From the NCBI GenBank assembly GCA_002352465.1, contig DEIN01000003.1, forward strand, positions 88,933 to 152,932: a DNA stretch of 64,000 bases, given 5' to 3'. The notes beneath the pieces are model-generated. The model was not told the DNA's origin. It ran no database searches and saw nothing but the letters and a program-made list of their open reading frames with translations. This document shows positions 4,910 to 23,667 of the stretch, one piece after another. Source of the DNA: Patescibacteria group bacterium UBA2773. Its GTDB lineage: Bacteria > Patescibacteriota > Minisyncoccia > Moranbacterales > DUUL01. Each line of letters begins with the position of its first letter. Position 1 is the first letter of the stretch. A program made the translations under genes and the position numbers.

Positions 4910-5413
4910 TTATTGTTTATTTTTGATTTTCAATGCTTCCCCAACGACCCTATTACTATTAATCGAATTATAAAATTTCAAATCTTTTACTTTTTCTATC
5001 TCAACCCATTCCGCTGAATCTTTATAATCTTTTTCTTCTTCACTAAAATTATCAACTGAAATTTTGCCACCAACTTTTTTGACCAAAAAATAAAAAACTG
5101 GCGCATTCCAATATTCATTTTTGTGTTTCTTCGAATGAGCTGGATGAAAGAAAAAAGTATCACAATAAACTATTTTTCCGACTTCAATCTTCAATCCAGT
5201 CTCCTCCTTGAATTCTCTTTTTAAAGTTTCCTCTAAAGTTTCCTGAACTTTTGCTCCTCCTCCCGGAAAATCATATCCATCCCACTGCTTTGACAATAAG
5301 ACTTTTCCGTCCTCAATTAAAACTCCATAAACCGACGGCCTAAAAATTAATTGTTCCGGTTTCACCTCTTTTTTATTTCCCCAAACATCATGACAAACAA
5401 TTTTCTTTATCAT
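4910..5413 (-). CDS. NUDIX hydrolase
   Basis: Nudix box GGGAKVQETLEETLKREFKEETGL (GX5EX7REUXEEXGU). Only 10 bp upstream of tyrS, so probably co-transcribed. Confidence 0.75.
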   Translation of the reverse strand: MIKKIVCHDVWGNKKEVKPEQLIFRPSVYGVLIEDGKVLLSKQWDGYDFPGGGAKVQETLEETLKREFKEETGLKIEVGKIVYCDTFFFHPAHSKKHKNEYWNAPVFYFLVKKVGGKISVDNFSEEEKDYKDSAEWVEIEKVKDLKFYNSINSNRVVGEALKIKNKQ

Positions 5414-7407: not shown

Positions 7408-7480
7408 TCCCGGGTAGCTCAGTGGTAGAGCAATTGACTGTTAATCAATCGGTCGTCGGTTCGAATCCGACCCCGGGAGC
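7408..7480 (+). tRNA. tRNA-Asn (anticodon GTT)
   Basis: Acceptor TCCCGGG/CCCGGGA, discriminator G. D-arm GCTC-AGTGGTAGAGC. Anticodon loop CTGTTAA. T-arm GTCGG-TTCGAAT-CCGAC. Confidence 0.85.
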
Positions 7481-9211: not shown

Positions 9212-9433
9212 TCAATTTTTACTCATTTTCCTCAAATCGTCAACTCTCTGCTCTTTTTTCCATTCTAAAAAACTATTATATTCTTCAATACTTTTGAAAG
9301 ACTTATAAGCCAATTTCATTAAATTAAGAAAACTAACCGCTCTTTCAAAAGCTTCTTTCTTGCTTATCTTTTCACCAAATTCCTTTAGATAAAGCATTCT
9401 GAACTCTTCAATTTTTTCTTCGGTTAGCTTCAT
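9212..9433 (-). CDS. Small hypothetical protein (73 aa)
   Basis: ORF track, next to the recombinase. No recognisable motif. Confidence 0.3.
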   Translation of the reverse strand: MKLTEEKIEEFRMLYLKEFGEKISKKEAFERAVSFLNLMKLAYKSFKSIEEYNSFLEWKKEQRVDDLRKMSKN

Positions 9434-9445
9434 AATTAAAAAATT

Positions 9446-9715
9446 CTAGTTTCTATCTTTGACTTCAAAAATCATTCTTTTTAAATCTCTCATCCGATTA
9501 TTAAACTCCCTCGGTTCGACCTTTAGTTTTCCTTTCTGAAAATCTTCAATAATTTTTTCTGTCTTTTCTTCCATAGGAACAATAAAATATGCAATCCCAG
9601 CCCGTCTATCCCATTCAATTTTCTTTATTGAATGAGAAAAATAACTTAGAACAGTAGCAAGAACTAATTCTCTAGTTAAAAAATCCCTACCTGTTTGAAA
9701 ATAATCATCCTTCAT
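9446..9715 (-). CDS. Small hypothetical protein (89 aa)
   Basis: ORF track, 12 bp upstream of the 73-aa ORF, so possibly a two-gene module. Confidence 0.3.
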   Translation of the reverse strand: MKDDYFQTGRDFLTRELVLATVLSYFSHSIKKIEWDRRAGIAYFIVPMEEKTEKIIEDFQKGKLKVEPREFNNRMRDLKRMIFEVKDRN

Positions 9716-9811
9716 AAATATTATTTTAATTGTTAATTTTAATCTTTCTTTAGGTTGATATTAGTCTATTTGTTTTCCGAAGCATTTTTGGAACTTTTTG
9801 AAAAATAAAAA

Positions 9812-9835
9812 CGCCTCTTTCGAGACGTTCTAACT
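9812..9835 (-). terminator. Rho-independent terminator downstream of the 531-aa gene
   Basis: Minus-strand hairpin aacgtctc-gaa-gaggcgtt followed by tttattttt. Confidence 0.45.
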
Positions 9836-9854
9836 TGATATTTTTTAATAATAT

Positions 9855-11450
9855 TTAGGAATATAACTCTTTCTTGATTTTTTCCGCTAATAATTTTCTT
9901 GTTTTAAAAACAGCTCTTTTTCCCATTCCAAACTTTTCACCAATCTCTTCATCTGAATATCCTTCATAGTTTAACTTTAAAATTTTAAAATCACGTTTAA
10001 TCTTCTTTTTCTGAAAATTAGTTTCGGCTTTTTTGATTATTTTTTTCTTAATTAAAAATAAATCTGATTTAGTTATTTTTTCATTCAAAACACCATCTTC
10101 TCTCCCCAAGGTATCTTTTAATTTCAGCCCATTATTCCCGGAAAAATTAGTCTCTTTATCTAAGCTTATTTCTTTTTCTTTCTCTTTAATTAGCTCTAAT
10201 GGATTTGATTTATGGTTAAGCCAATTTTCTAATTCACTTTTAAAACTATAAACTAACCTCTTAAAATAATCTGGTTTTTTAAGCATCCCTTGGTTAAAAA
10301 AACATCCGATAGCTTCTATTGGAGAGAGTCCAGCTGATAATATAGGTAAGCAAGTCTTGGTTATATCATTTTCGATATCTTCAAATTTTAAACCGCCTTT
10401 TTCAAAAAATTTATAATCAAGAGCTATTTTTAATTTTTTATCCTCATAATCAACTTTTTTCAAATGCTCCAAAAAACCTCCCTTAAAATTTTCAACCAAT
10501 CTAAGCATTATTTTTTTGTTTATAGATTGTTCAGCTTTAAGGGCTAGCTCATTTTCCTTATCTAATTCTAAAAAATAATTTAATTTTTTAAAATTATTAC
10601 CAAACAAAACTTTTTCCATAATAGTATCTGTTGCTGTCTCAAGCAAGAAAATTTGTGTATCATCTAAAATTACTCCACTTTTAAATTTTTCTGGTAATTG
10701 CTCTTTAATAAATTTATTAGCCACTCCGTTGAAATATCCTCTCAAAATACTTTTGATTTTAGCTTTAACTTGAAAATCACCATCTTGACCTTTAGTCAAA
10801 ACATACAAACCAACGATTCTCTTTAAAGCATCCTTTCCTATAAAATAGCTTAAATCAAGTTCATTTAAAATTTTTTGTGAATATTCGTGAATACTGTAAT
10901 TCCGTAAAGGAGTTGTTATTTCAAATTTCGAACAAACATCATCCAAGTTTCCTCCCATTTTTTCTACTTCTTCGCACTTTCTTAAAAGATAACCCCTCAA
11001 GTCATTAACCTCTTCCCTAAAATCCTCCCCTCTAGAAAATTTTCCCAAGTTGACTTCTAGACAACTTTTTTCATCAAATATGCTTATAAAATCTTCATTT
11101 TCTTCTGAAACAATAAACTTAGAAATTTTTCCATTTCCAGCACTTCTATTTTCTTCAAAATTTAACCCATAATAGTCTTTATGCTCTAATTCTTCTATAA
11201 AAAGATGCTTATCAACTTCTAGTTGATATAAATTTGGTTTAACATCAAAATCGATTCTCTCTTCCCAAATTCCGTTTTCTCTCAAAGAGGTTATTAACAT
11301 TCTAAATTGCTTTTCAGCTCCACCTTTTTGATGTTTTTTATCAACTTCATCCATCGCCTGAATCAATTTAACAGCATTTTCTTTCAAATTTAAAAATATT
11401 TCAATTCTTTTTTTCAAATCCGACTGTCTTTGAGCTAAATTATTCTTCAT
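9855..11450 (-). CDS. Hypothetical protein with C-terminal sigma-70 region-4/LuxR-like HTH
   Basis: 531 aa. C-terminus 'LKLNYEGYSDEEIGEKFGMGKRAVFKTRKLLAEKI' resembles an ECF-sigma region 4 HTH. The N-terminal ~480 aa are unassigned. Confidence 0.45.
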   Translation of the reverse strand: MKNNLAQRQSDLKKRIEIFLNLKENAVKLIQAMDEVDKKHQKGGAEKQFRMLITSLRENGIWEERIDFDVKPNLYQLEVDKHLFIEELEHKDYYGLNFEENRSAGNGKISKFIVSEENEDFISIFDEKSCLEVNLGKFSRGEDFREEVNDLRGYLLRKCEEVEKMGGNLDDVCSKFEITTPLRNYSIHEYSQKILNELDLSYFIGKDALKRIVGLYVLTKGQDGDFQVKAKIKSILRGYFNGVANKFIKEQLPEKFKSGVILDDTQIFLLETATDTIMEKVLFGNNFKKLNYFLELDKENELALKAEQSINKKIMLRLVENFKGGFLEHLKKVDYEDKKLKIALDYKFFEKGGLKFEDIENDITKTCLPILSAGLSPIEAIGCFFNQGMLKKPDYFKRLVYSFKSELENWLNHKSNPLELIKEKEKEISLDKETNFSGNNGLKLKDTLGREDGVLNEKITKSDLFLIKKKIIKKAETNFQKKKIKRDFKILKLNYEGYSDEEIGEKFGMGKRAVFKTRKLLAEKIKKELYS

Positions 11451-11646
11451 CTTTTAATCTTAATCTTAATTTATCCTAAAGTGCTTTAGTATAGCCTAAA
11501 AACGAATAAAAATAAAGACAACAAAAAAACAATTACCTGATAATTGTCTAGTCTCAAAATATTTTTAAATTTTATAAACTCTTTATCTTCTCTATTCTAT
11601 CACGATAATCGGGCAATGCTTTTTAACCAATTGTCAAAATTTTCTC

Positions 11647-13119
11647 TCAACTTTTCAACTTTCTTAGTATCTCCACCATCGCCAAAGTATCTAACTCACA
11701 ATATTTAAGTAAATCTTTTCTAATTTTAGCTTTTTCATCCTCAGAAACATCGTCGAACATTGTCTTTCCCCAAGCTTCGATTGCCATTGTTCCATTTTGC
11801 ACTTCTAACTCTTTATAGGAAAGCTCAGGAACTAAAACTGGCAAAACTTTTTTAATAGAGGCACTGCCCTTGAAATCAGGATGAAGATAATCTTTTTTGA
11901 AAACCTTCATTAAATCAAAGACTCTCGAATTAACATCTTCTAGAAAATCTTTAAATTCAGGATGTAATTTCATCAATTCCTTGTTTCTTCCCTTTTCAAA
12001 AGATTCATACCAAACGACGACACTTCCGACTGGTCCAATCTGGCTTTTCATTGATTTTACCAAATCTCGAGTAGCATTTTCTAGATTATCAGCTAAATAT
12101 TCAAAATGTTGAAGTTTTCCGTCTTTGCCTAAAATATGCAATGAATATTGAAAAACTAGTTGTTGATTAGTTTTATAACCGTCTAAAAATGGGATTGGTT
12201 TTCCAAAAGTCTCGTAATCTAAAAAATAAATTGGATAAACCAACTCAGACAAAGTTTCCCGAACCGTTTCTTGATTGATTTGAGGAATGCCTGTCTTTTG
12301 AAGGTCAATTTTAATTCTTTGGATTTTAGTAGCTTCAAAATCCTCTGGAACATCTTTAACATCAAAAATATTATCATTAACTAGAGTTTCAAGCTTTTTA
12401 CCCTTAAAAATATGAGCTGTTGAATATTCTGGGACTTGCGGATTGAAAAGATTAAAACAATCACAACGCTGTCCGTGACTTCGGTAAATGCAACCGCAAC
12501 CCTTTAAATCAACATCATCAATTTTGAATGAATCTAAGGCTTTTTGGATTTCAATTTCTGTTTCTTCTTTAATATCAGCTATTTTATCTGAAACCTCGTT
12601 CAAAACAAATAACTGTTTCAAATCCAAATCACCGTTTTTAATATAGTCCTTGCTTAAATGCACAATAAAATTTTTTCCAACTTCAATTCCTGATTTTTCT
12701 AAAACTATTTTCTGAAAAGCAATGTCCTTAATATGATTATGAAATAAATCGGTCTTAATACTAGAACCTGATTTTACTTCATATAAGTTCCACTTTTTGC
12801 TCTTTTTATCAAATTCTAAAACATCAATCTTAGCAAAAAGTCCCTCTTCTGTTTCAAAAGTGGCTTGAAATATTGTCTTCTGTTGTATGATTAGCTCTTT
12901 GGTTTTTTCAATTAGTTCTTTTCTGCTACCGATATTTGAAAATCCACCGCTAAAAGTCTGTTGAAAACATTCTTCAACTTCATAACCGTCCTTAATCAAT
13001 TTTTTCAAGAAAGCCGAAAACTCCCCCTCAACATAATCCTCGGGTCTTTTCTTTTTTAGCCAAAGACATTTCTGGCAAATCAGAAATTCTTTAAAATCGG
13101 TTTTTGATAAATAAAGCAT
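11647..13119 (-). CDS. DUF2779-like Cys-rich PD-(D/E)xK nuclease-fold protein
   Basis: 490 aa. N-terminus 'MLYLSKTDFKEFLICQKCLWL' recalls the DUF2779 signature. 'NLYEVKSGSS' is an E-x-K motif. Cys cluster CGCIYRSHGQRCDC. Starts 18 bp after the Res gene. Confidence 0.45.
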   Translation of the reverse strand: MLYLSKTDFKEFLICQKCLWLKKKRPEDYVEGEFSAFLKKLIKDGYEVEECFQQTFSGGFSNIGSRKELIEKTKELIIQQKTIFQATFETEEGLFAKIDVLEFDKKSKKWNLYEVKSGSSIKTDLFHNHIKDIAFQKIVLEKSGIEVGKNFIVHLSKDYIKNGDLDLKQLFVLNEVSDKIADIKEETEIEIQKALDSFKIDDVDLKGCGCIYRSHGQRCDCFNLFNPQVPEYSTAHIFKGKKLETLVNDNIFDVKDVPEDFEATKIQRIKIDLQKTGIPQINQETVRETLSELVYPIYFLDYETFGKPIPFLDGYKTNQQLVFQYSLHILGKDGKLQHFEYLADNLENATRDLVKSMKSQIGPVGSVVVWYESFEKGRNKELMKLHPEFKDFLEDVNSRVFDLMKVFKKDYLHPDFKGSASIKKVLPVLVPELSYKELEVQNGTMAIEAWGKTMFDDVSEDEKAKIRKDLLKYCELDTLAMVEILRKLKS

Positions 13120-13137
13120 TATTTAAAATCTAATATT

Positions 13138-15879
13138 TTAAGAAAATATTTCAGAAACTTTTTCTACTCTTCGAAAATCAACCCCCTCTAATTCTCTGAA
13201 ATGAGCCTTCCCACAATCAATCTTATTTTGTTCACTTTCTCTAATTTCTCCAGGAGATTTAGTTTCCGCCACAAAGTAAACCTTTTCGTCATTCTCCAAA
13301 ACAATTGCCCAATCAGGATTATAATTACCAATCGGCGTTTTAATTTTAAACCACCCAGGAAGTTTAAAATAAAATTTAACTCTATCTATTGATTCAAGTT
13401 CTTTAGCAAACTCTGACTCTACCGCAGAATCAATCAAAACGTGGTCATAAAGAGTTTTATCTTGATTTTGAACCTTAACTACATTCTCTAAATAGCTCTC
13501 CAGCTCATTGCCTTTAAATAGCTCCATAGCGTAATAATTATTCTTGCCTTGAAGTCTCTCATATTTAATTCCATCGACAATCAATTTTTGCAAAGCCGAC
13601 CGAATCGAATCAACTGCTAAATCCATAAACTGCTGAGGATTTTTGGCAATCTCCATATCCTTGCCCGATTTTTTAATAATCTCAACTATTGTTTGTCTAG
13701 TTAATTTAGTTTTAGCTTGAATGTATCCCAAGATGTTAGGAATTGCTTTAAAATCATTTTCATACTCAACTTTTTTCTCGCTAATATTAGCCAAACCCGT
13801 CACTATTCCTTTTTTTGTAATATCTAATTTTCCTTTCAAACTAATAATTTTAGGCTCTCTAATTTCAGCATTGGCTAAAAATTCGCTAGATTCCTTTATC
13901 AAGTCTTCATTGCTAAAATTTACCTGGTATTTAGTTTTGTATTTAATTTTGTTCCAAAGCTCTTTAAAATCTTCATTTAATTTGTAGGCTTTAGTTAATT
14001 TAATTTTAGTCCTGTCTCTTTTTCTTTTTACTCTTTCACTAAAATCAACCCCACATTCATCTTCAATTTCAATTTGCAATTTTTTAGCAAATTCTTCATA
14101 ACTTTCATTAGCAATAACTGTCAAAACATTGATATTCTCATCAAACACCCTTTGCCCTTCTTGATTGACAGAAAGTCTCATTCCCCGACCAATTTCTTGA
14201 CGTTTTTTAATTTCACTTTGAGACCGACTAAGCGTGCAAATTTGAAAAACATTAGGGTTATCCCAGCCCTCTCTAAGAGCTGAGTGAGAAAAAATAAATT
14301 GCAAGGGCTCCTTGGTTGATAAAAGTCTTTCTTTATCTTTCATTATTAAACTATAAGTATCATCATCAGCCTTGCTGTTGCCTTTAGTATCTCGCCAATT
14401 TCCTTTTTTGTCTTGAGAAAAATATCCATTATGGATTTTTTCTACTTCATAAGGAATTAAATCAGTGAAGACTGGATTTTGTTTCAATTCTTCAAAAATC
14501 TCTTCAAACCACACGGCAATTTTTCCTTTTTTAATTAAGTCATTTTCATAACTTCGATAATTAGCTACTTTATCAATAAAGAATAATGACAAAACTTTTA
14601 TTCCTTTGTCTTTGAATTTTCTTGCTTTTTCAAAATGATTTAGAATAGTCTGGCGAATTTGAAATTTCATTATTTCATCGTTTAGCCCACCAATCGATTG
14701 ACCAACATAAATCATTTTACCATTAGAAAATGCAATTGATTGACCAATGACATCCGCCGAATCAACAACATAGCCCTTATAAACGCCTCTTTCTCCTGAA
14801 AGTTTGAACAGATTACATTCGCTTGCTCCTTTTGAAGATTTTCTAACTGTAATTATTTTTCGTTTAATTCCGTTATTGTCGCTTACGTCAATTTTGAGCT
14901 TAATGGCAATACTATTTTTTTGAGATTGAACTGATTCTAATTCAATAAACGGTTCATTTAAATTATTTTCTTCCAAAACTGAATCCACCTCAATTTTTTT
15001 AACCAAATTCAAATCATAAGCTCTAACAGGGTCTAGTCTATAAATTAAGTTATATGGATTTTTATGAGTTGCCGAATATCTCAAAGTAAAAAGCGGATTT
15101 AAATTCTCAATAGCTTTTTTTCTAATCGGAGTTTCCATATTTTGAGGTTCATCTATAATCACAATTGGACTAATATTTTTAATGTATTCAATCGGCACAC
15201 CCCAATCACTTTTCTGATAAATAATATTACCTTTTCTTTTCTCCTCGCTAAATTTAGCAAAAGAATCAATATTGATTACTAAAATTTGAAGACTATTGGC
15301 GGTTGCAAAATTTTTCAACAAACCTCTTTTTTTTGGGTCGTAAACGTGAAAATCCATTTCAGGATTATCATAAATAGTATCAAAATGCTCTTTGGTGATT
15401 TGAAGATTTTTAATCACACCCTCCTTAATGGCAATTGAAGGCACCACGATAATAAACTTTTTAAAGCCATATTTATTATGAAGTTCGTGAATTGTTCTGA
15501 GATAAACATAGGTTTTTCCTGTTCCAGTTTCCATTTCAAGAGAAAAATTCATTCCTTCGGCTAATTTCTGATGGCTTGCTCCCGCACCTATCATTTCAGT
15601 CCCAATCGCACCGACACCAATTCCACCGCCACTTTTTATTCCAGATTTATTCAATTTATTTTCCTCCTGAATATTATGAAGATTTTTAATTATCTCCTCT
15701 TGGCTAATCACCAAATTATTTCCAACTACAAAACCACTTTCAAGCAATTGTTGCCCTGTTTGTTTTTTAATTTCAATTTCAAAATCGCCTTTATTCAAAG
15801 GTTGCCCCTCAAAAAGACTAACTGTCGAATTTATGGCATCTAATTGGTATTTTTGGTTTGAATCAAATTGTAATTTCAT
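13138..15879 (-). CDS. res: Type III restriction enzyme Res subunit (SF2 helicase plus C-terminal PD-(D/E)xK nuclease)
   Basis: 913 aa. Helicase motif I 'ETGTGKTYVY', motif II 'IIDEPQN', and C-terminal 'NPDW…FVAETK' nuclease motif. Confidence 0.7.
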   Translation of the reverse strand: MKLQFDSNQKYQLDAINSTVSLFEGQPLNKGDFEIEIKKQTGQQLLESGFVVGNNLVISQEEIIKNLHNIQEENKLNKSGIKSGGGIGVGAIGTEMIGAGASHQKLAEGMNFSLEMETGTGKTYVYLRTIHELHNKYGFKKFIIVVPSIAIKEGVIKNLQITKEHFDTIYDNPEMDFHVYDPKKRGLLKNFATANSLQILVINIDSFAKFSEEKRKGNIIYQKSDWGVPIEYIKNISPIVIIDEPQNMETPIRKKAIENLNPLFTLRYSATHKNPYNLIYRLDPVRAYDLNLVKKIEVDSVLEENNLNEPFIELESVQSQKNSIAIKLKIDVSDNNGIKRKIITVRKSSKGASECNLFKLSGERGVYKGYVVDSADVIGQSIAFSNGKMIYVGQSIGGLNDEIMKFQIRQTILNHFEKARKFKDKGIKVLSLFFIDKVANYRSYENDLIKKGKIAVWFEEIFEELKQNPVFTDLIPYEVEKIHNGYFSQDKKGNWRDTKGNSKADDDTYSLIMKDKERLLSTKEPLQFIFSHSALREGWDNPNVFQICTLSRSQSEIKKRQEIGRGMRLSVNQEGQRVFDENINVLTVIANESYEEFAKKLQIEIEDECGVDFSERVKRKRDRTKIKLTKAYKLNEDFKELWNKIKYKTKYQVNFSNEDLIKESSEFLANAEIREPKIISLKGKLDITKKGIVTGLANISEKKVEYENDFKAIPNILGYIQAKTKLTRQTIVEIIKKSGKDMEIAKNPQQFMDLAVDSIRSALQKLIVDGIKYERLQGKNNYYAMELFKGNELESYLENVVKVQNQDKTLYDHVLIDSAVESEFAKELESIDRVKFYFKLPGWFKIKTPIGNYNPDWAIVLENDEKVYFVAETKSPGEIRESEQNKIDCGKAHFRELEGVDFRRVEKVSEIFS

Positions 15880-17992
15880 AATTTATGATTTCTTTAACTA
15901 ATGTTATAAGATATTCAAATTCATCCTTTTTTTTCTTTTTATTTTCGTCCTCTAGATAGTCTCTAATTTTTTTTAGAAAATTCAAAGCTCCCTCCTTATC
16001 GTGGCTAACATTTCCGCAATAAACTTCCAAACTTCCAGCTTCAAGTATGAATATTGGACAATTTATTTTTTTTATCTCTACTCCTTTCTTAAGTTCACTT
16101 AAAACATCTTCGAGATTATTTAAATTAAATTTTTTGTATTCTTTCATAAAATCGATTTCATCTAAAATTTTCTTATTATCCAAACTATTGTTAATCCAAA
16201 ATTTCAAAAATTTTTCATCCTTTTCGATAATTTTATTATTTTTTTGTAAACCATAAATTATTTTCAATATCCTAAGCCCGACATCTTTCTGAGTTAATTT
16301 TCTTTTTATAGACTTACTCTTAAAATAAGGTTCCAATAATTCCAAACTATTATTTTTCGTTAATTTTGTAATATTATCTTTTATCGGATTTAATAAAGTG
16401 ACTCCTTTCAATAAGCTACCCTCCCAAATATTATCCAAATCAGCAATAACAAAAGAATTAATTTTGAATTTATCTAAAAATTCTATATACTTTAAAAAAT
16501 TATTTTTTCCGTTAACTGATACGACCTCTATGCTCTTGTCTCCTTTATTGAATTTATCCAGCAAATAGCCAAAAATTATTTCGTCTGTCATACCCTCAAC
16601 AAGAATAATGTTATCTGCGAAAAAAAGCTTAGCACTATTTGAATAAGTAATTATATCAATTAAATCCTTTTGTTCCCCCAAAGAATTATTCCAACCAGAA
16701 TTTCTATTTTCTGGAATTAATTTCGTGAAACCATTCGATTTATAAATTCTAGTTATATTTTGAATCGTTTCTGAGCTTACAAAAAATGGCGAGTGCGTCA
16801 CTACCACAAATTGTAAATTTCGAATATTCGATACTTCATCATATAAACGAATCAACTTTGATTGCCATCTTGGATGCAGATGTATTTCAGGTTCATCGAT
16901 GATTAAAACTGCGTCTTTCAAGTCGAATGCTTCAATGGAAAAAATAAAATTAAAAATTTCTTTCTCTCCAGAACTCAATTTATTAAACTCAACTTGCCTT
17001 CCATCAGTCTCTATTATAAATTTAAACTTGTTATCATCTGCATTAGTCACTTCAACTTTAAAATCATAATTACCAACCAAATGCAATAGTTCTTTAACTC
17101 TTTTGACTTGCCCTATATCAGAAAACTTTTTTTTAACTGGCTTTCCTTTCTCTGTCAATAATTGATTCTCAGTTTTTAAGTCGTTAGATAATTTCGAAAA
17201 ATAATAAGTAAAATAATCAACGTCAGAAGAGGTTTTGTTTGATGTTTTTTCTTTTGATTGCCTAATTTTATCTGTTTTATTTTGTCCTGGCAAAGAAATT
17301 TCGAAACTTTGACCTTCGTGAAATCTATTTGGTGAAAAAAATTTCCAATTATATTTTAATTCTGAAATTTGATTGGTATTTCGAAATTTTTCATTATGCT
17401 TTTCTATTAGATACTTTATTTTTTCAAAATAATTTAAATATCTAAAAAATAATTTTTTATTATCAGAAAAACTATTATAACAATCGTCCGCTGTCTTAAC
17501 GTTGAGTAAGTGCTGAGAAAAACTAAATACTTGCTTAACTTCATTTTTCAATAAGTTGACATCTACCCTGGAAAACAAATCATTGAATGTTGTATAAATT
17601 TCGTTGCTTCCATTTCCAGAAAGCTCCCCTTCTATTTCAGATATTTTATCAAGATTGTTTTTAATAATTTTAATATTTTGTAAATCATTTTCACTAAATT
17701 CTAATTCAATTTCTAACTCTTGATTTACGTCATCTTTAATATTATCGTGTCTCGACAAATCAAAAAAATTATTGAGTTCTTTTCTTAAAAATAAAGTTTT
17801 AAAAGGCTCTTTATGCTCATTCCAATGCCAAATAAAAAAAGTATTCAAAGAAATATTTAAAATATCCATTAAATTACTTTTTCCTCCTCCATTCGGACCA
17901 ATCAAAATATTAGTCCCTTTTTTATTAAAAGAAATTTTAATCTTTTCTCCAATGCTTTTTATGTTTTGTATACTAATTGAATTTATTATCAT
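15863..17992 (-). CDS. OLD-family ABC-ATPase fused to a Toprim nuclease domain (GajA/AriAB-like)
   Basis: 709 aa. Walker A 'GPNGGGKSN', ABC signature 'LSSGEKE', Walker B 'LIIDEPEIHLHP', Toprim 'ILVEGMTDEIIF' plus DxD 'IADLDN'. Overlaps Res by 17 nt and starts 2 nt after Mod. Confidence 0.7.
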   Translation of the reverse strand: MIINSISIQNIKSIGEKIKISFNKKGTNILIGPNGGGKSNLMDILNISLNTFFIWHWNEHKEPFKTLFLRKELNNFFDLSRHDNIKDDVNQELEIELEFSENDLQNIKIIKNNLDKISEIEGELSGNGSNEIYTTFNDLFSRVDVNLLKNEVKQVFSFSQHLLNVKTADDCYNSFSDNKKLFFRYLNYFEKIKYLIEKHNEKFRNTNQISELKYNWKFFSPNRFHEGQSFEISLPGQNKTDKIRQSKEKTSNKTSSDVDYFTYYFSKLSNDLKTENQLLTEKGKPVKKKFSDIGQVKRVKELLHLVGNYDFKVEVTNADDNKFKFIIETDGRQVEFNKLSSGEKEIFNFIFSIEAFDLKDAVLIIDEPEIHLHPRWQSKLIRLYDEVSNIRNLQFVVVTHSPFFVSSETIQNITRIYKSNGFTKLIPENRNSGWNNSLGEQKDLIDIITYSNSAKLFFADNIILVEGMTDEIIFGYLLDKFNKGDKSIEVVSVNGKNNFLKYIEFLDKFKINSFVIADLDNIWEGSLLKGVTLLNPIKDNITKLTKNNSLELLEPYFKSKSIKRKLTQKDVGLRILKIIYGLQKNNKIIEKDEKFLKFWINNSLDNKKILDEIDFMKEYKKFNLNNLEDVLSELKKGVEIKKINCPIFILEAGSLEVYCGNVSHDKEGALNFLKKIRDYLEDENKKKKKDEFEYLITLVKEIINYEITI

Positions 17993-17994
17993 CT

Positions 17995-19884
17995 TTATAT
18001 TACCTTAAAATCAATATCTTCCTGTTCGGCTTGAAGTAAAATATTGGCTTTCAGTTCGTCATTATTTTGAAAAGCTCTTTCTAGACAAATTATTTTTTCT
18101 GGTTTTAAATTTTGAAAAAATTCACCCATTTCTTTAGAAATTTTATCGCCCAAATAAATAATCAATTTGCCATCACCCAAATTATAATATTTTTCCTTGC
18201 CCGAAGTAGCTTCAGCGGAGACTGGTCCTTTAAAATCTTTTTCCTGAATCAGAATATCCAAATCTAAACCACTTTTTAAAATAAGTTCATACAAAATATT
18301 TTTCTGAGTGCTTCCTGTTTCAAGATTATCAATAAAATCATCCAACGCTGAAAATAAATTCTTTCCGTCTTTGAATTTTCCTTGCCAAATCTTGAAATTA
18401 GATTTATCTAATTTAAAAGTTTTGAATCCTAAATCGACTTTATTTTCAGTCTCTTCTTTTATTTTTTTGCTTGCTCTTCTAATTCGTTCCTTGGCAATTT
18501 CAGCAATATTTTTATAGCCCGCCTTAAATGCTTCACTTTTTTCATTACATTTTTCTGGCAATTGAACACAAATCCATTTCCTATTTCCATTATCTTCAGC
18601 ATTTTGTTCCATTACTGCTTGAGCAGTCGGTCCTGAGCCAGCAAAAAAATCTAAAATTATATCTTCTTTGTTAGTAGAAAGAAATATTATCTTTTTTATC
18701 AATCTAACAGGTTTTGGGGTATCAAATGTTGCCACATCTTCAAAAAGTTTCTTCAATTCTTGTTTTGCTTCTTGATTATGTCCGACCTCTTTGTGCTTCC
18801 AAATAGTAGTACTAACTATTCCATCACTATTTTCAGATAAGAAAGTCTTAATTCTTGGCATATTACCACCGCTTTTTCCAAACCAAATTCTATTGTCTCT
18901 AACTAAATCATTAAATTTATTTAAAGACATAGACCAACTTCTTCCTTTGGGAGGAAGAGCCTCTCTGCCATTTGGCGTTTTTATTGGATAAATATCTTTT
19001 GGTGTAACTCTTTTTACTGTTAAGTCGCTAGATGCCCAAGAACCTCTTGAATCATTATCTGGATTAGAATATCTTTTATTGTTCTCATCAGTTCTTGGCA
19101 ATAAGTTTGGTTTCCAATTTTCCTTGTTTTTACAATAAAGTAAAACATAATCGTGATTATCAGATAAATACTTAGCATCATTTTGAGGAGAAAATTTCTT
19201 CTCCCAAATTATTTGTGCTACAAAATTCTCCTCACCAAAAATTTCGTTCATAATCATTCTTAAATTATGAACTTCGTTATCATCAATCGAAACAAAAATC
19301 ACTCCATCTTGCTTCAATAAATTTCTAGCCAAAAATAACCTTGGATACATCATATTAAGCCAATCGCTATGAAAATGTCCGTTACTGTCTTTTCTGTTAG
19401 CTGAAAGTCCGTCTGCTCTTGTCAAATCACCATTTTCATCCAATTCTCCGCTATCTTCCAATTCTTCTTTTCTGGTTTTTCTAAAATTATCATTATAAAT
19501 AAAATCATTTCCCGTGTTATAAGGCGGGTCAATATAAATACATTTGATTTTTCCATAATAAGAACGCTGTAAAACTTTTAGAACTTCCAAATTATCACCT
19601 TCGATAAAAGCATTGCCAGTTTTATCAAAATCAACGGATTCTTCCTCATTGGATTTTAATGTTGCTGTTGTTCCTTTTTGAATTTCTTCAAAACAACTAC
19701 TTTTTCCAGCCCAAGAAAGCCCGTAATGTTCATTGGCTAATTGATAATCTTCTCCCAAGGCTAATTTTAATTTTTCTGGGTCAATCTTTCCATCCGAAAA
19801 AACACTGGGAAAATTAACCTTCAATGCCTCGGCTAATTCTTTTTGAGAGATATAAGACCCTCCTTTTATTTTATGATTTTTCAT
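17995..19884 (-). CDS. mod: Type III (beta-class) DNA N6-adenine/N4-cytosine methyltransferase Mod subunit
   Basis: 629 aa. Motif IV 'IYIDPPYN' precedes motif I 'FFAGSGPTAQA' (beta-class order), with a TRD-sized insert between them. Confidence 0.75.
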   Translation of the reverse strand: MKNHKIKGGSYISQKELAEALKVNFPSVFSDGKIDPEKLKLALGEDYQLANEHYGLSWAGKSSCFEEIQKGTTATLKSNEEESVDFDKTGNAFIEGDNLEVLKVLQRSYYGKIKCIYIDPPYNTGNDFIYNDNFRKTRKEELEDSGELDENGDLTRADGLSANRKDSNGHFHSDWLNMMYPRLFLARNLLKQDGVIFVSIDDNEVHNLRMIMNEIFGEENFVAQIIWEKKFSPQNDAKYLSDNHDYVLLYCKNKENWKPNLLPRTDENNKRYSNPDNDSRGSWASSDLTVKRVTPKDIYPIKTPNGREALPPKGRSWSMSLNKFNDLVRDNRIWFGKSGGNMPRIKTFLSENSDGIVSTTIWKHKEVGHNQEAKQELKKLFEDVATFDTPKPVRLIKKIIFLSTNKEDIILDFFAGSGPTAQAVMEQNAEDNGNRKWICVQLPEKCNEKSEAFKAGYKNIAEIAKERIRRASKKIKEETENKVDLGFKTFKLDKSNFKIWQGKFKDGKNLFSALDDFIDNLETGSTQKNILYELILKSGLDLDILIQEKDFKGPVSAEATSGKEKYYNLGDGKLIIYLGDKISKEMGEFFQNLKPEKIICLERAFQNNDELKANILLQAEQEDIDFKVI

Positions 19885-19980: not shown

Positions 19981-21588
19981 TTATATTTTATCATTTACAA
20001 TTTTAATTGCTGTTGGTGGCTTTAAATAAAATGGCTCGCCAGCAATCTTTACAATCCCAATTTTTTCTTTTATTTCGCCAAGAACCAAACAAGGAATGTT
20101 AGTGCAACCCGCTTCTTTGTAGAAATAATAAGTATAATAGTCATCACTCATAATAAATTTTTTTCCTTTTTGATATACAGTTAATTCTGAATAATTTTTA
20201 TTTTTAAAATTTTCGGTAAAATATTTTTTTAAACTTTCATCGACAACTGGCTTATAATCGGTAAAAGGCTTTATAAATTCGCTCTTTATTAAGGCTCTCC
20301 TGCAAGTCAGCTCTTTCTTGTAGCAAGCACTCAAAAGCCTAATCAATTCTTCATCTTTTCTCTCATTGCTTTCTCCAAAATCACTTTTTATCTTAGAAAT
20401 ATCAATTTTACTAGGAATTTTATTTTTGTTATTCAGTAATTTCTTTGCTTCATTGATAATTTCATTAGGTGTAAAATGACAGCTAACCCAATAATCATCT
20501 GCTCCTAATTTAAGAGCTTTTTCAATACAATCCTTCTCTCCCATATTGCTATAAACAGCTATCCGAATATTGTTAAAATTCTTATTTTGACGAACTTTCT
20601 CAATGAACTCAATGCCGTCCATTTCTGGCATTACTATTTCAGTTATTATTAAATCAGGATTATAACTTTTGATTTCTTCAATCACATTTTTACCTGGATG
20701 AGAAAACTGCTTAATTTGAAAACTATTTTCTAAAAATTTTTTCTTAAATATCTCTCTAAGCATTGGGTCATTTTCAAACTGCATTATTTTAAAATTGTTT
20801 TTCCCTGTTTTTCTAAATTTTTCTATTTGAAAATTATCCAATTTATTTGTTAATTCAGCTCTTTTTCCTGCTTTTATAGCTTTCTCGGGAGTGTCAAAAA
20901 AAACATTACTCTTTCTTGAATCAAATAAATCAGCTTTACTAATATCTAAAAAATCTTTTCTTAATTTACTTGGCATTTTTTCTAAAACTTTGTATTCTTT
21001 TGAGATTTTTTCAGAAAATTCTTTATTTTTAGCCGTTGGCAAGACTGCCCCGTTTTTATCCCTATCAATTTTTTTCTCTAGACTTGAGACAAGATTTTCT
21101 CCTTTTGACTCTATTTCTTTTTTAGTTGAGTTTTTTTTATTATTTTTTTTGTATTTATTTATCAAAAGAAGAATCCCCACAGTTAGCAAAACATAAGTCA
21201 TTGATTTTAAATGAGCTTGAATTATTAAATCTCTTTCTTTAACGCACCATCCCAAGCCACCTCTTTTAACAATTCCAATACGAACCAAGTCTTGCACACT
21301 ATTTATTGAATAATAACAATAAGTTTTTCCACTAAAGCTATAATAATTAGAAGGAATCTTGATATTAAAAAAAATCAAATAAACGGCAAGTATCAAAATC
21401 AATTCTTGCCAATGGTTCTTGATAAAATTTTTAAACCAAATTTGTTGATTAAAAAATTTTACTAAATTTTCAAAAAAACTTTTTGTTTTATTCATAGCGA
21501 TATCAAACCGCTTAACGCAATAATCAAAAACAAGTAAAGTCAAAATTAAACCACTAATTACAGTAATCGCCAATAATATTTTGCTCAT
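19981..21588 (-). CDS. Membrane-anchored protein with a central response-regulator receiver domain and an unassigned C-terminal domain
   Basis: 535 aa. Three N-terminal TM segments, a receiver-like block 'LIITEIVMPEMDGIEF…IAVYS…LGADDY', and a ~150-aa C-terminus of unknown fold. Confidence 0.45.
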   Translation of the reverse strand: MSKILLAITVISGLILTLLVFDYCVKRFDIAMNKTKSFFENLVKFFNQQIWFKNFIKNHWQELILILAVYLIFFNIKIPSNYYSFSGKTYCYYSINSVQDLVRIGIVKRGGLGWCVKERDLIIQAHLKSMTYVLLTVGILLLINKYKKNNKKNSTKKEIESKGENLVSSLEKKIDRDKNGAVLPTAKNKEFSEKISKEYKVLEKMPSKLRKDFLDISKADLFDSRKSNVFFDTPEKAIKAGKRAELTNKLDNFQIEKFRKTGKNNFKIMQFENDPMLREIFKKKFLENSFQIKQFSHPGKNVIEEIKSYNPDLIITEIVMPEMDGIEFIEKVRQNKNFNNIRIAVYSNMGEKDCIEKALKLGADDYWVSCHFTPNEIINEAKKLLNNKNKIPSKIDISKIKSDFGESNERKDEELIRLLSACYKKELTCRRALIKSEFIKPFTDYKPVVDESLKKYFTENFKNKNYSELTVYQKGKKFIMSDDYYTYYFYKEAGCTNIPCLVLGEIKEKIGIVKIAGEPFYLKPPTAIKIVNDKI

Positions 21589-21778: not shown

Positions 21779-22012
21779 TTACCTTTCAATGAATTTTTCA
21801 TACAACCAGCTAATCAAAAGAAAGGGCATAAAACCGATTATTACTAGAAACGGAATACCCAACATCATTCTTAAAAGCTCCCAACCGTTTTCCCAACCCC
21901 AACTATGAAATATGTCTTGCATACTAATGTCTCCAATAGTGACAAACATAAAGGAATAAACCATTCCAACTAAAATTCCAAAGAAAAAGACTATTGGTTT
22001 CTTGAGCTTCAT
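21779..22012 (-). CDS. Small membrane protein (77 aa)
   Basis: Two hydrophobic helices. Overlaps the integrase stop by 4 nt. Confidence 0.3.
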   Translation of the reverse strand: MKLKKPIVFFFGILVGMVYSFMFVTIGDISMQDIFHSWGWENGWELLRMMLGIPFLVIIGFMPFLLISWLYEKFIER

Positions 22013-22989
22013 ATTTGTTTGTTAGTTATTTTTATATCTTCAAAGGTCTTATAAAATCTCGGTAAGTCCTCTTTAAGTTTAAGATTATCGTCATACACGA
22101 TTAACATCTCAAGACTTTTATGTCTTGAATATTTCTTAACATTTAACAAATCACCTTTATAGCTTCTGATTAGCTGACTAACAAAAAAATGTCTCGTGCC
22201 GTGAGTTGATTTATCAATACCTAATTCCCTGAAAAAGTCTTTGACTATTTTTCTTATTCCTCGCGTTGTAAGCCGTCCTGAGCGATGATTATTGCTTTGA
22301 CTAGTAAACAATGCTCCATCGGCGATTTTACTTGCTTTAAGATAAGTTTTGAGAGCCTGAGTAGTTTTAGGATGAAGATTGATTGCCTCTTTGTCGTCTG
22401 CTCCTTTTCCTTGAATAAAAGCTAGACTATTAACTAAATCCACATCTTTAATATCCAACCTAACTACCTCACATTGTCTCAAGCCCTGAAATAACAAAAA
22501 ACTCAAGATTACTTTCAATCTTAAGTTTTTTGGATTATCTTCTAATTGTTGTAGTTCTTTTGATAGTTTAGCCACTTCTTCCACATTCAAACCGCTTTTC
22601 TTATGTTTTCGACTCTGAGAGAAGACTTTGACATTTTGAGTGATATTAACTGGAATAAGCCCTCGTCGATTCAATTCATTTAAAAAAATCTTTGCAGTGA
22701 TTAAATACTTGTTCTTAGAGGAAACAGCTAGGTTATTTCTTCCTTTTAGGTATCTTTTGAATTTTAAAAAAGTATTATGATTAAGTCCTTGGCTTTTGGT
22801 AAATTCTAGAAACAATCTAATTCTTGATTGATAATCTTTCTTTGTGGCATCAGAAATATCTAATAAATCAAAGACTTGTTTCGCCTTCCCTTTCTCTTTT
22901 AATAATATTACCAGTTCTCCGCTCATAAAATTTATTAGTTTTATTGCGGGAACACAAAACCCCGCATCAGCTAGGTCTTGCGACCCCAT
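22009..22989 (-). CDS. Tyrosine recombinase / phage-type integrase
   Basis: 326 aa. Conserved R ('LRQCEVVRLD'), HxxR ('HGTRHFF') and catalytic Y ('HKSLEMLIVY'). The annotated N-terminus (MGSQDLADAGF…) lies in a GC-rich stretch, so the true start may be the internal Met (MSGELV…). Confidence 0.8.
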   Translation of the reverse strand: MGSQDLADAGFCVPAIKLINFMSGELVILLKEKGKAKQVFDLLDISDATKKDYQSRIRLFLEFTKSQGLNHNTFLKFKRYLKGRNNLAVSSKNKYLITAKIFLNELNRRGLIPVNITQNVKVFSQSRKHKKSGLNVEEVAKLSKELQQLEDNPKNLRLKVILSFLLFQGLRQCEVVRLDIKDVDLVNSLAFIQGKGADDKEAINLHPKTTQALKTYLKASKIADGALFTSQSNNHRSGRLTTRGIRKIVKDFFRELGIDKSTHGTRHFFVSQLIRSYKGDLLNVKKYSRHKSLEMLIVYDDNLKLKEDLPRFYKTFEDIKITNKQI

Positions 22990-23130: not shown

Positions 23131-23667
23131 TTAAAGTAAACCCAAATAATCCAATCCAACATATCCTACTTCTACATCTGTATTTTTTCCACCTTTTAAT
23201 AACTCCCTAAATTCTGAAAGAGGCATCAAAACTACTTCGGCAAATTCAGTTTTATCTAAGTTTTGTTCCGCAACTTTTTCACAATCAGTTATTACGACAC
23301 AGTGCCGATTCATTGTAGAGTAAGCGCAATCATAGGCAGTGGTTATAAATTTTGCTTTTCCTTTATAACCAGTTTCTTCTAAAAGTTCTCTTTCAGCTGC
23401 TTGTTCGGGAGTTTCATCTTTATCAACATAGCCGCCAGGAAGTTCATCTAAAATTTCCTTAGGTCCAGGACGAAACTGTTTGACTAATATTACTTGCTGG
23501 TCTTTGGTGAGAGCAAGAATTCCAACAGCAGGGCCTTCCTTTTTGATATAAAAATCACTAACTTTTCCATCAGGCAATTTAAAGTCAACCTTCTCCATCT
23601 TCTTTCCATATTTACTGAAAACTTCTTCTCTTGAAATTTCCTCCCATTTTTGTATTTTATTTGACAT
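23131..23667 (-). CDS. NUDIX hydrolase (ADP-ribose / NDP-sugar pyrophosphatase-like)
   Basis: Nudix box 'GGYVDKDETPEQAAERELLEETGY'. Confidence 0.7.
   Translation of the reverse strand: MSNKIQKWEEISREEVFSKYGKKMEKVDFKLPDGKVSDFYIKKEGPAVGILALTKDQQVILVKQFRPGPKEILDELPGGYVDKDETPEQAAERELLEETGYKGKAKFITTAYDCAYSTMNRHCVVITDCEKVAEQNLDKTEFAEVVLMPLSEFRELLKGGKNTDVEVGYVGLDYLGLL

Follow-up and report, generated by a model that had tools for sequence, protein, structure and literature searches.

The window, the whole stretch of 64,000 nucleotides of DNA that was analysed, contains an operon of four closely packed genes, all on the minus strand, which encode the Mod protein of a Type III restriction-modification (R-M) system, an OLD-family ABC-ATPase/Toprim protein, the Res protein and a DUF2779 protein. 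The coordinates and strands assigned to these genes in the sequence-only reading that preceded this analysis agree exactly with the ORF calls. The mod/res and res/DUF2779 junctions are referred to as slot 1 and slot 2. The features are:

17995..19884, minus strand: Type III mod, 629 aa
15880..17994, minus strand: slot 1, from the mod stop to the res ATG, 2115 nt, wholly filled by the OLD gene
15863..17992, minus strand: OLD-family nuclease gene, cargo of slot 1, 709 aa
16673..17992, minus strand: ABC ATPase region of OLD, aa 1 to about 440 (Pfam, motifs and model)
17876-17899, minus strand: OLD Walker A motif GPNGGGKS, aa 32-39, with K38
16964-16978, minus strand: OLD signature motif LSSGE, aa 339-343
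16886-16909, minus strand: OLD Walker B motif LIIDEPEIHLHP, with D366/E367
16403..16624, minus strand: Toprim nuclease domain of OLD, aa 457-530 (OLD-like_TOPRIM over aa 457-520)
15866..16402, minus strand: C-terminal extension of OLD, aa 531-709, largely of helices followed by a small beta element
13138..15879, minus strand: Type III res, 913 aa
13120..13137, minus strand: slot 2, 18 nt, empty here
11647..13119, minus strand: DUF2779 gene, last of the operon, 490 aa
11521..11550, minus strand: weak candidate for the operon terminator, an AT-rich hairpin (ACAAUUA-UCAGG-UAAUUGU) followed by a U-tract

The gene junctions were also as had been claimed when the sequence itself was read: the TAA of mod is followed after 2 nt by the ATG of the OLD gene, the final 17 nt of the OLD gene overlap res, and the ATG of DUF2779 comes 18 nt after the res stop. 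This spacing suggests that the four genes are translationally coupled. Promoter and terminator scans at the operon, where the DNA is 30% GC, gave no signal above chance; the candidate hairpin, which lies ~100 nt 3' of DUF2779 (folding z = -2.4 for a 146-nt region), was missed by the consensus terminator scan, which demands G+C-rich stems. The operon is located on a ~15-kb island of low GC with recombinase genes on both flanks, in a genome that probably belongs to the Patescibacteria (CPR). No att sites were found for the island, and the flanking recombinases together with the GC dip suggest that it is mobile.

Both R-M genes look intact, as judged from their sequences. Mod matches PADLOC MTase_III (1.3e-206) and Pfam N6_N4_Mtase (9.8e-40) and is a beta-class N6-adenine methyltransferase, whose DPPY and FAGSG motifs occupy aa 119-122 and 414-418. 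In the target-recognition region at its centre (about nt 18652-19191) it differs so much from the nearest relative, L175, that blastn aligns the ends of the gene alone, as expected for a TRD. Res matches PADLOC REase_III (9.3e-283) and Pfam ResIII (2e-14) and RE_endonuc (6e-35); it combines an SF2 helicase-type ATPase (GTGKT119, DEPQ243, QEIGRG561) and, at the C-terminus, a PD-(D/E)xK endonuclease (D856, E872-x-K874), and its catalytic residues are invariant in an alignment of 14 homologues. The features that define Type III proteins, DPPY, FxGxG and a central TRD in Mod and an SF2 ATPase plus PD-(D/E)xK nuclease in Res, are thus all present; the expected placement of res directly after mod is not, as 2115 nt lie between them. 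The protein encoded by the last gene (Pfam DUF2779 1.5e-37 and RNase_H_2 8e-5, PADLOC Cas4 1.5e-5, NCBIfam UU173_fam 2e-23) has in its N-terminal part a Cas4-like PD-(D/E)xK domain (D99, E114-x-K116, Cys15/18/208/210/219/221) and in its C-terminal part an RNase H-fold DEDD-type exonuclease (D301-x-E303), a domain interpretation taken from PMC13621843. It is predicted to be a dual nuclease accessory to the Type III operon.

Searches with Pfam and PADLOC models bore out the earlier proposal that the middle protein is a genuine OLD-family ABC-ATPase/Toprim, and each of the motifs quoted in its favour (Walker A, LSSGE, Walker B, VEGMTDE and DLDN) was found. The Pfam matches are AAA_15 (4.8e-29), AAA_21 (2.6e-27), OLD-like_TOPRIM (2.9e-16) and SMC_N; the best PADLOC match is Old (8.7e-34). 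The ABC ATPase region holds a large helical insert (aa ~100-310) and an H-loop at H400, and the Toprim residues are E466 (in VEGMTDE) and D518-x-D520 (in DLDN). The C-terminal extension has no family match, and there is no Pfam match past aa 552, yet it contains the clade-invariant residues G653, E656 and Y658. An AlphaFold2 model (pLDDT 80, pTM 0.77) was matched by Foldseek with probability 1.0 to the retron-Eco8 OLD (9p4j/9lpa), GajA (8x5i/8u7i), TsOLD (6p74) and PtuA, although with TM-scores of merely 0.3-0.4, because of inter-domain flexibility; the sequence similarity to solved OLDs is restricted to aa ~358-523. An N-terminal ABC ATPase, a C-terminal Toprim with its Glu and DxD, and the overall fold of the OLD family are therefore all seen. 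In 22 members of its clade K38, S340-E345, D366-H373, H400, E466, D518 and D520 are invariant. Since members diverged to 40-54% identity keep all of the ATPase and Toprim catalytic residues, OLD activity appears to be under purifying selection, and by its residues the window protein would be a full-length, catalytically intact single-gene nuclease.

In the absence of any clade-wide partner gene, and in having Old as its best PADLOC model, the protein resembles the Class 1 OLDs (P2 Old, TsOLD, E. coli YbjD). It differs from TsOLD, whose chain in PDB 6P74 is 528 aa, in its length of 709 aa and its C-terminal extension of ~180 aa, and it departs from the definition of Class 1 given in a review, as isolated genes not proximal to other defence genes, since it adjoins defence genes in the window and in four other contexts. 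Neither the window OLD nor any close homologue is adjoined by a UvrD-type gene, as would be expected of Class 2 (Gabija), whose OLDs require a helicase partner. No RT, as in the retron effectors of Class 3, was found among the window neighbours, and the match to NCBIfam retron_eff_Eco8 (60 bits) is below the cut-off of 250. The same ABC-ATPase/Toprim logic is found in PARIS (AriA + AriB) and Gabija (GajA/GajB), and the AriA, AriAB and GajA models of PADLOC match at 1e-29 to 1e-18, but Old is better than AriA (1.5e-29) or the fused AriAB (6.3e-25); there is no separate AriB gene and no Pfam DUF4435 match for the window OLD. At L256, another Type III system, a true Gabija-like pair adjoins the system and is not nested in it.

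The origin of the gene is best seen by comparison with its relatives. The Res, DUF2779 and Mod proteins of L175 are 95%, 89% and 71% identical to those of the window. In blastn, homology to L175 stops at the mod stop codon (window position 17989) and restarts at 15886, which is 7 nt before the res ATG; between these points OLD is replaced in L175 by genes for a 218-aa membrane protein, a 106-aa protein and a 308-aa PDC-S18 protein. It is clear that this is an exact cassette replacement, with three unrelated genes in place of OLD, that runs from the stop codon of mod to the start codon of res. The same junction holds non-OLD cargo in each of six Res relatives (55-95% identity), in the form of a ~215-aa membrane protein, DUF3800, a HEPN-like protein, PDC-S18 or a SMODS cyclase, and direct mod-res adjacency is seen in none of these six closest relatives. 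The sample is small, at 8 OLD contexts and 7 close operons, and was selected by the length of the contigs and not randomly. The further contents of the slots are:

L171, slot 1: 213-aa TM protein and DUF3800
L172, slot 1: 201-aa protein with an RNGSAH motif, 58-aa and 256-aa proteins
L173/L174, slot 1: 217-aa TM protein
P0137 contig, slot 1: 217-aa, 163-aa, SMODS/AGS_C and 127-aa proteins
L175, slot 2: 205-aa gene
L176, slot 1: 292-aa protein; slot 2: 800-aa AAA_13/PDC-S06 gene
L005, slot 2: OLD, zeta toxin and 53-aa gene

Slot 1 is also filled further afield. Inserts of 389-1840 nt are present in 19 of 75 more distant Type III loci from IMG/VR (about 25%), the remaining 56 having a mod-res gap of <=23 nt, and mod and res are interrupted in four of six plasmid Type III systems. 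The IMG/VR inserts comprise RhuM (five times), Abi_C (twice), YhcG-PDDEXK, Fic, PLD and Bro-N; RhuM, Abi_C, PDDEXK, Fic and PLD genes are among those of the distant loci and plasmid systems together. The interruption had been thought exceptional on the grounds that canonical Type III systems are mod-res only. With the junction filled in 6/6 close, 4/6 plasmid and 19/75 IMG/VR loci this view finds no support, and the insertion of OLD is not exceptional per se: slot 1 is recurrently filled by diverse defence and abortive-infection genes. The particular arrangement, on the other hand, does seem to be new, as had been suggested. No other locus was found with an OLD-family nuclease at the mod/res position, there is no second mod-OLD-res-DUF2779 operon among about 260 related loci, and no description of one was found in the searchable literature.

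The OLD clade, conversely, is not tied to Type III systems. It is stand-alone in three of its eight contexts (P0006, P0007 and P0003; 44-52% identity), where there is no helicase or R-M gene, and adjoins some R-M-type module in the other five: homologues follow Type II or IV R-M genes (P0010, P0021) or a PLD-SNF2/Eco57I-type module (L009), and in L005 the homologue occupies slot 2, after a different Type III res and before DUF2779. Of the eight, the window and L005 combine OLD, Type III and DUF2779, their DUF2779 proteins being 39% identical, and no neighbour gene is conserved over the eight contexts. The nearest homologues among 5.8 billion proteins are 54% identical for OLD and 95% for Res; this disparity, and a GC content of 0.26 in the OLD gene versus 0.31-0.32 in mod, res and DUF2779, suggest that OLD is of separate origin from the genes that flank it. 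DUF2779 is absent from six of the eight OLD contexts. It follows res in L175 and L176, both of which lack OLD, as well as in L005, and on plasmids DUF2779 has neither R-M nor OLD genes as neighbours. DUF2779 thus goes with the R-M host rather than with OLD, and the suggestion that it is a joint effector with OLD finds no favour, as L175 and L176 keep it without OLD and on plasmids it occurs with neither R-M nor OLD.

Taken together, these observations make it likely that OLD is an autonomous single-gene defence which a mobile Type III(+DUF2779) operon has taken up as cargo into a variable slot. The four genes would be co-transcribed and translationally coupled; Mod and Res would restrict unmodified DNA in the usual Type III manner, and OLD would act independently of them as a second layer. 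If OLD works as P2 Old does, an ABC-ATPase oligomer might sense a nucleic-acid cue associated with infection, releasing a Toprim activity that would cleave tRNA or DNA and lead to abortive infection. DUF2779 would probably process DNA ends, for example those of restriction fragments. The mosaic of identities and the absence of any motif common to the junctions, in an alignment of six operons, point to homologous recombination through the conserved mod 3' end and res 5' end as the route by which operons swap cargo. If so, the R-M genes carry the cargo, provide a platform for its expression and act as homology arms, and the mod/res position is a slot into and out of which different defence genes are swapped. 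Alternatively, the R-M neighbours in 5/8 contexts could reflect a functional preference and not the clustering of genes on islands, which would speak against the cargo reading.

Embedded defence genes of this type have been described by Payne et al. (bioRxiv 10.1101/2024.01.29.577857) in Hma, BREX, DISARM and Type I R-M systems. As in their guilt-by-embedding approach, the window OLD is nested and co-oriented between genes of another defence system, the cargo varies among related hosts, and the cargo families also occur non-embedded. ABC-ATPase/TOPRIM proteins are a typical cargo there (HEC-04 is such a fusion, embedded in Hma), and two cargo genes of the relatives match PDC-S18 and PDC-S06, which are models built from embedded genes. 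The window differs in its Type III host, to which embedding would now be extended, and in its two slots (mod/res and res/DUF2779); HEC-04 is absent from the best 25 of the 111 PADLOC families matched by the window OLD. RhuM, Fic/Doc, Abi-type and HEPN genes embedded in R-M operons are also known (Anantharaman et al. 2013, PMC3710099), and the slot of the Res family carries RhuM, Fic, Abi_C, PDDEXK and PLD elsewhere, unlike the OLD-family nuclease of the window.

It had been proposed that OLD guards the R-M system as an abortive back-up that monitors the Mod-Res complex. On such a model OLD monitors the complex or is kept inactive by it, and fires once a phage anti-restriction protein has disabled restriction. 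The identity of OLD and its embedding in an intact Type III operon stand, and the analogy drawn with genes embedded in R-M loci is apt. PrrC/RloC share with it an ABC-ATPase-regulated nuclease gene inside an R-M operon and the concept of a second-line abortive defence; PrrC with EcoprrI, for which masking by the R-M complex is documented, and PARIS with Ocr are the precedents. The OLD gene sits tightly between mod and res, with which it is apparently co-translated, its clade lies beside R-M-type genes in 5/8 contexts (twice Type III with DUF2779), and its family relatives PARIS and Gabija are triggered by anti-restriction proteins. The idea of a back-up or guard role for embedded ABC-ATPase systems has already been published (bioRxiv 10.1101/2024.01.29.577857; PMC12707154). 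Monitoring of Mod-Res by OLD is nevertheless unlikely. A 95%-identical Res (L175) carries unrelated cargo, as do all six relatives in place of OLD, and so Res can have no dedicated interface for OLD unless a generic surface is used. The clade stands alone in 3/8 contexts and is otherwise found near Type II, Type IV-like and PLD-SNF2 modules too, in L005 OLD is placed after res and not between mod and res, and what P2 Old detects is DNA structures rather than the status of an R-M system. PrrC itself is in nearly all cases found inside Type I R-M loci (Payne et al., bioRxiv 10.1101/2024.01.29.577857), in contrast to the often free-standing OLD clade; its effector is HEPN and not Toprim, its host Type Ic hsd and not Type III, and it is absent from the best 25 of the 111 PADLOC families.

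A broader form of this idea, similarly improbable, is a three-layer system in which the Type III enzyme cuts, DUF2779 degrades or processes the ends, and OLD senses failure of the pathway and responds with abortive Toprim cleavage. The signal of failure could be anti-restriction inhibition of Mod/Res or the persistence of aberrant DNA ends or structures. This supposes a host lineage that lacks RecBCD. If it were true, OLD would be a genuine guardian of the Type III enzyme, and mod-[slot]-res-[slot]-DUF2779 a dedicated platform for alternative guardians.

It is very unlikely that OLD is a passenger or addiction element with no part in phage defence, whether a selfish hitch-hiker, a post-segregational stabiliser of the island or a decaying gene. 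The slot does take genes of many different kinds, classic toxins among them (zeta, Fic, RhuM and AbiEii neighbours), and overexpressed OLD can be toxic in other systems; the full-length ORF and the selection on its catalytic residues described above count against this, however, and OLD family members are experimentally validated defences. Least probable is an integrated multi-nuclease machine, a new class of OLD acting as one system with the SF2 motor of Res and/or DUF2779 on the model of the GajA-GajB helicase pairing: the two independent operons with all three genes would suit it, but L175 and L176 have Res and DUF2779 without OLD, DUF2779 is missing from most OLD contexts and any helicase or R-M gene from three, DUF2779 on plasmids has no R-M or OLD neighbours, and Res has the complete make-up of a canonical Type III enzyme.

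The four genes first proposed from the sequence were recovered as open reading frames at identical coordinates, all on the minus strand, and searches against Pfam and PADLOC models placed each of them unambiguously in its proposed family:

17995-19884, minus strand: mod, PADLOC MTase_III (1e-206)
15863-17992, minus strand: OLD-like gene, Pfam AAA_15 (5e-29), AAA_21 (3e-27) and OLD-like_TOPRIM (3e-16)
13138-15879, minus strand: res, PADLOC REase_III (9e-283), Pfam ResIII and RE_endonuc
11647-13119, minus strand: DUF2779 gene, Pfam DUF2779 (1.5e-37) with weak Cas4 and RNase-H-fold signals

Reading of the sequence also bore out the junctions described for them: the TAA of mod is followed after 2 nt by the ATG of the OLD gene, whose last 17 nt lie within res, and the stop codon of res and the ATG of the DUF2779 gene are 18 nt apart. 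This spacing suggests that the four genes are translationally coupled. Scans of the operon DNA for consensus promoters and terminators gave matches at chance level, which are uninformative in such AT-rich DNA. Mod carries the motifs DPPY119 and FAGSG414, and Res carries GTGKT119, DEPQ243, QEIGRG561 and D856/E872/K874; judged by these motifs, both look fully functional.

Every motif that had been quoted for the OLD-like protein is present, and residues K38, D366/E367, H400, E466 and D518/D520 are invariant among 22 homologues. The best PADLOC model for the protein is Old (9e-34), with AriA, GajA and PtuA behind it, in agreement with the OLD/GajA/AriA-type architecture originally suggested. An AlphaFold2 model (pLDDT 80, pTM 0.77) matches retron-Eco8 OLD, PtuA, GajA and Thermus OLD in Foldseek with a probability of 1.0; TM-scores are 0.3-0.4 to all OLD classes, so that this comparison does not assign a class. 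Since the features tested in both sequence and fold are those of the family, the middle protein is an OLD-family member. The Old model outscores the PARIS models and the protein has no DUF4435 match. A Class 2 (Gabija) identity was ruled out by the absence of a UvrD partner, and a Class 3 (retron) identity by the absence of a reverse transcriptase. The protein resembles a Class 1 OLD, apart from its position inside a defence operon.

Res has many close homologues, the nearest of which lies in the operon at locus L175, where Res is 95%, DUF2779 89% and Mod 71% identical to the window proteins. Nucleotide homology between the two operons runs up to the mod stop codon (window 17989) and restarts, at 95% identity, 7 nt ahead of the res ATG (window 15886); over the DUF2779 gene it extends from 6 nt ahead of the ATG through the stop codon. 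It therefore follows that the OLD gene is a cassette that has been precisely exchanged for three unrelated genes. The interval between mod and res (slot 1) is occupied in every close relative inspected, each time by different cargo, and in two of them a further gene lies between res and DUF2779 (slot 2).

Cargo of related Type III operons, by locus or contig, with the identity of Res to the window protein
L175 (95%): gene order mod, 218 aa, 106 aa, 308 aa, res, 205 aa, DUF2779
L171 (75%): slot 1, 213-aa membrane protein and DUF3800
L172 (73%): slot 1, 201-aa protein with an RNGSAH (HEPN-like) motif, 58-aa and 256-aa proteins
L173/L174 (70%): slot 1, 217-aa membrane protein
P0137 contig (63%): slot 1, 217 aa, 163 aa, SMODS/AGS_C cyclase, 127 aa
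L176 (55%): slot 1, 292-aa gene; slot 2, 800-aa AAA_13 gene

When the junctions of six operons were aligned, conservation was seen to stop at the mod stop codon and to restart at the res ATG. The start codons of the cargo are no more than 4 nt away from the mod stop, with gaps of 1-3 nt and, in L172, a 4-nt overlap; no shared junction motif of the kind seen in integron attC sites is visible in this alignment. Identity between L175 and the window is also a mosaic at the nucleotide level (res 95%, the ends of mod 83-86%, DUF2779 85%). Taken with the junction pattern, this points to homologous recombination through the flanking R-M genes as the probable route of exchange. The central part of mod (window 18652-19191) has no nucleotide match to the L175 gene, which would be consistent with a swapped target-recognition domain and thus with different methylation and restriction specificities in near-identical operons.

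The cargo of the relatives is diverse and of defence type. The 308-aa protein of L175 matches PADLOC PDC-S18 (3e-94); according to Payne et al. (bioRxiv 10.1101/2024.01.29.577857), the PDC models derive from genes found inside BREX, DISARM and Type I R-M systems. On the P0137 contig (ENA ERZ1426829) a 447-aa SMODS/AGS_C nucleotidyltransferase, a CBASS-type cyclase, lies between mod and res beside genes of 217, 163 and 127 aa. The RNGSAH motif of the 201-aa L172 protein (6406-7011), which has no family match, resembles the HEPN Rx4-6H RNase motif, and the 256-aa protein that comes after it is membrane-anchored. The 213-, 217- and 218-aa slot proteins are mutually homologous multi-pass membrane proteins (31-43% identity; L171 5267-5908, L173 7351-8004, L175 1923-2579 and probably the 217-aa gene of the P0137 contig). 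In most close relatives this protein of about 215 aa is encoded directly after mod; it is the commonest occupant of slot 1 and is missing from the window. It has no significant Pfam match and no PADLOC match, and could be an accessory or effector of this R-M lineage. A family assignment was likewise not obtained for slot proteins of 292, 256, 224, 205 and 106 aa. The protein of about 224 aa, without a Pfam match at E <= 0.001, is common to slot 1 of three IMG/VR Type III operons (L282 8290-8964, L286 8310-8984, L287 6422-7099).

It had been supposed that canonical Type III systems consist of mod and res only, and that the inserted gene marks the window operon as an exception. That contrast does not hold, as slot 1 is commonly filled in this Res family. 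One gene lies between mod and res in 4/6 annotated plasmid systems inspected (Res homologues of 39-51% identity), namely a PDDEXK nuclease, a 565-aa hypothetical protein, a DUF262 protein and a RhuM protein. The mod-res gap is bimodally distributed across 75 IMG/VR loci with a Res of this family: it is at most 23 nt long in 56, and the other 19 have inserts of 389-1840 nt, which encode RhuM (5), Abi_C (2), YhcG-type PDDEXK, Fic, PLD, Bro-N and unassigned proteins. The window insert, at 2115 nt, is larger than any of these and the only one to encode an OLD protein.

In a collection of 5.8 billion proteins one sequence, on a 287-kb contig, is identical to the OLD protein, which belongs to a small clade of full-length relatives of 39-54% identity, beyond which there are only generic OLD-family matches (about 35% identity over 73% of the length). 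Scanning GTDB genomes with the single protein found nothing, and a profile scan recovered one close relative, L089. Eight independent contexts of the clade, the window included, were compared; the other seven are as follows.

P0010/L089 (Patescibacteria UBA6805): EcoRI-type methylase, 134-aa gene, GmrSD/HNH, OLD
P0021: N6_N4 methylase, EcoO109I-type REase, OLD
L009: PLD-SNF2 helicase, Eco57I-type methylase, DUF3644, OLD
L005: Type III Res (PADLOC REase_III 4e-42), 2-nt gap, OLD, zeta toxin, 53-aa gene, DUF2779
P0006, P0007, P0003: stand-alone OLD gene in all three

Across the eight contexts there is thus no conserved partner gene; members of the clade look like single-gene, Class 1-like OLDs that often, not always, lie beside an R-M module of some kind. 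A tblastn search with Mod, Res and DUF2779 found no second mod-OLD-res among 168 OLD-family loci. Type III genes adjoin an OLD-like gene in two distant cases in that set, both metagenomic and of about 25-27% identity. In L028 (604-3596) a 373-aa methylase is followed, with a 4-nt overlap, by a 624-aa OLD-like gene, and L069 (9113-15166) has the order OLD-like (567 aa), mod, res, as does L070. Plasmids and IMG/VR viral contigs yielded no close OLD homologue, and no OLD gene adjoining Type III genes save a Gabija-like pair downstream of res in the IMG/VR locus L256 (7213-8217, 11276-12760, 12894-14084). There, a mod-RhuM-res operon is followed directly by a 494-aa OLD-family protein (AAA_15 and OLD-like TOPRIM) and a UvrD-type helicase; this Class 2 OLD is adjacent to its Type III system, whereas the window OLD is inside.

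In the window, L175 and L176, DUF2779 comes after res, and it is the last gene of the L005 operon; L171-L174 and the P0137 contig lack it at that position, and it was not detected in 80 IMG/VR loci. As L175 and L176 have no OLD gene, DUF2779 goes with some of the Type III operons whether or not OLD is present, which speaks against the idea that it serves OLD as an extra effector. The family has been read as a fusion of a Cas4-like PD-(D/E)xK domain with a DEDD exonuclease (PMC13621843), and the window protein has matching residues (D99, E114, K116, D301/E303); processing of the DNA ends made by restriction is a plausible role. On plasmids of Aliarcobacter, Helicobacter, Selenomonas and Sphingobium, DUF2779 is found in defence-island-like contexts without R-M genes, with a large ATPase directly upstream in 2/4 (Aliarcobacter L177, Helicobacter L178) and nearby in Selenomonas L179 and Sphingobium L180. 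In L176 the 800-aa AAA_13 ABC ATPase (9709-12111; PADLOC PDC-S06 2e-81, weak PrrC 9e-8) lies between res and DUF2779 (12126-13616). A fixed pair of DUF2779 with an upstream ABC ATPase, hinted at by L176 and the Helicobacter plasmid, was rejected because the upstream ATPases are mutually unrelated by blastp.

The reading that we favour, and consider probable, is that a mobile Type III R-M operon with DUF2779 carries interchangeable second-line defence genes and provides for their expression, the present cargo being an autonomous OLD nuclease. The four genes would be co-transcribed and OLD would act independently; by analogy with P2 Old, which is a tRNase (bioRxiv 10.64898/2026.07.10.737580), an ABC-ATPase oligomer may sense aberrant or replication-associated DNA structures, upon which the Toprim domain would cleave tRNA. 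The cargo would be swapped by homologous recombination. The sequence-only reading instead had OLD monitoring the Mod-Res complex. This is unlikely, because a Res 95% identical to that of the window works with other cargo, and members of the OLD clade frequently stand alone or accompany R-M systems of unrelated types; that OLD truly guards the Type III enzyme, in concert with end-processing by DUF2779, is similarly doubtful. A purely selfish passenger is improbable, as all catalytic residues are strictly conserved across a divergent clade. An integrated OLD-Res-DUF2779 machine is very improbable, given operons with Res and DUF2779 that lack OLD and OLD contexts that lack both.

Genes for RhuM, Fic and Abi proteins embedded in R-M operons were noted already in 2013 (PMC3710099), and the hosts taken up in a systematic "guilt-by-embedding" study were Hma, BREX, DISARM and Type I R-M, not Type III (bioRxiv 10.1101/2024.01.29.577857). 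The arrangement belongs to a known phenomenon and introduces no new immune mechanism. What is new is Type III as the host, the presence of two slots in an operon that closes with DUF2779, and OLD cargo at the mod-res junction; no description of Type III embedding or of mod-OLD-res-DUF2779 was found in the literature searched, as had been anticipated. The window and its relatives provide unusually clean evidence that the embedding logic of those other hosts recurs in Type III systems, and give a rule for mining new defence genes in the poorly explored CPR/Patescibacteria: look between mod and res. The locus also ties the predicted DUF2779 nuclease family to restriction systems, and it is a natural test bed for a question named in the OLD literature, whether a Class 1-like OLD is self-sufficient or dependent on its R-M host.

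The operon lies within a stretch of about 15 kb of lower GC content (0.26-0.32, against 0.34-0.39 in the flanks), bounded as follows:

First edge: ArgRS gene; tRNA-Asn, 7408-7480, plus strand; large serine recombinase, 7441-9084, minus strand
Second edge: tyrosine integrase, 22009-22989; housekeeping genes

Integrase genes are found close to the related operons L173, L175 and P0137 too. From the names given to the nearest Res and OLD homologues, the host probably belongs to the Patescibacteria. No att-type direct repeats or partial tRNA-Asn copy delimiting the island were found; at its edge the tRNA-Asn gene overlaps the 3' end of the recombinase ORF by 40 nt. NUDIX hydrolase genes lie just outside either end (4910-5413 and 23131-23667) and are weakly similar (37% identity over 51 aa), and therefore not a recent duplication. 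Between DUF2779 and the recombinase is a 531-aa ORF (9855-11450, minus strand) with no Pfam, PADLOC or NCBIfam match save a marginal C-terminal HTH (E = 0.008), followed by a small DUF5659 ORF (9446-9715) and a 73-aa ORF (9212-9433). On the other side, 96 nt upstream of mod, a gene at 19981-21588 (minus strand) encodes a 535-aa protein with an unassigned N-terminal region of about 260 aa, a receiver domain (aa 272-378, Pfam 1.5e-15) and a Shedu-like C-terminus (aa 386-515, PADLOC SduA/DUF4263 2.9e-11); it may be a phosphorylation-controlled Shedu variant adjoining the R-M operon.
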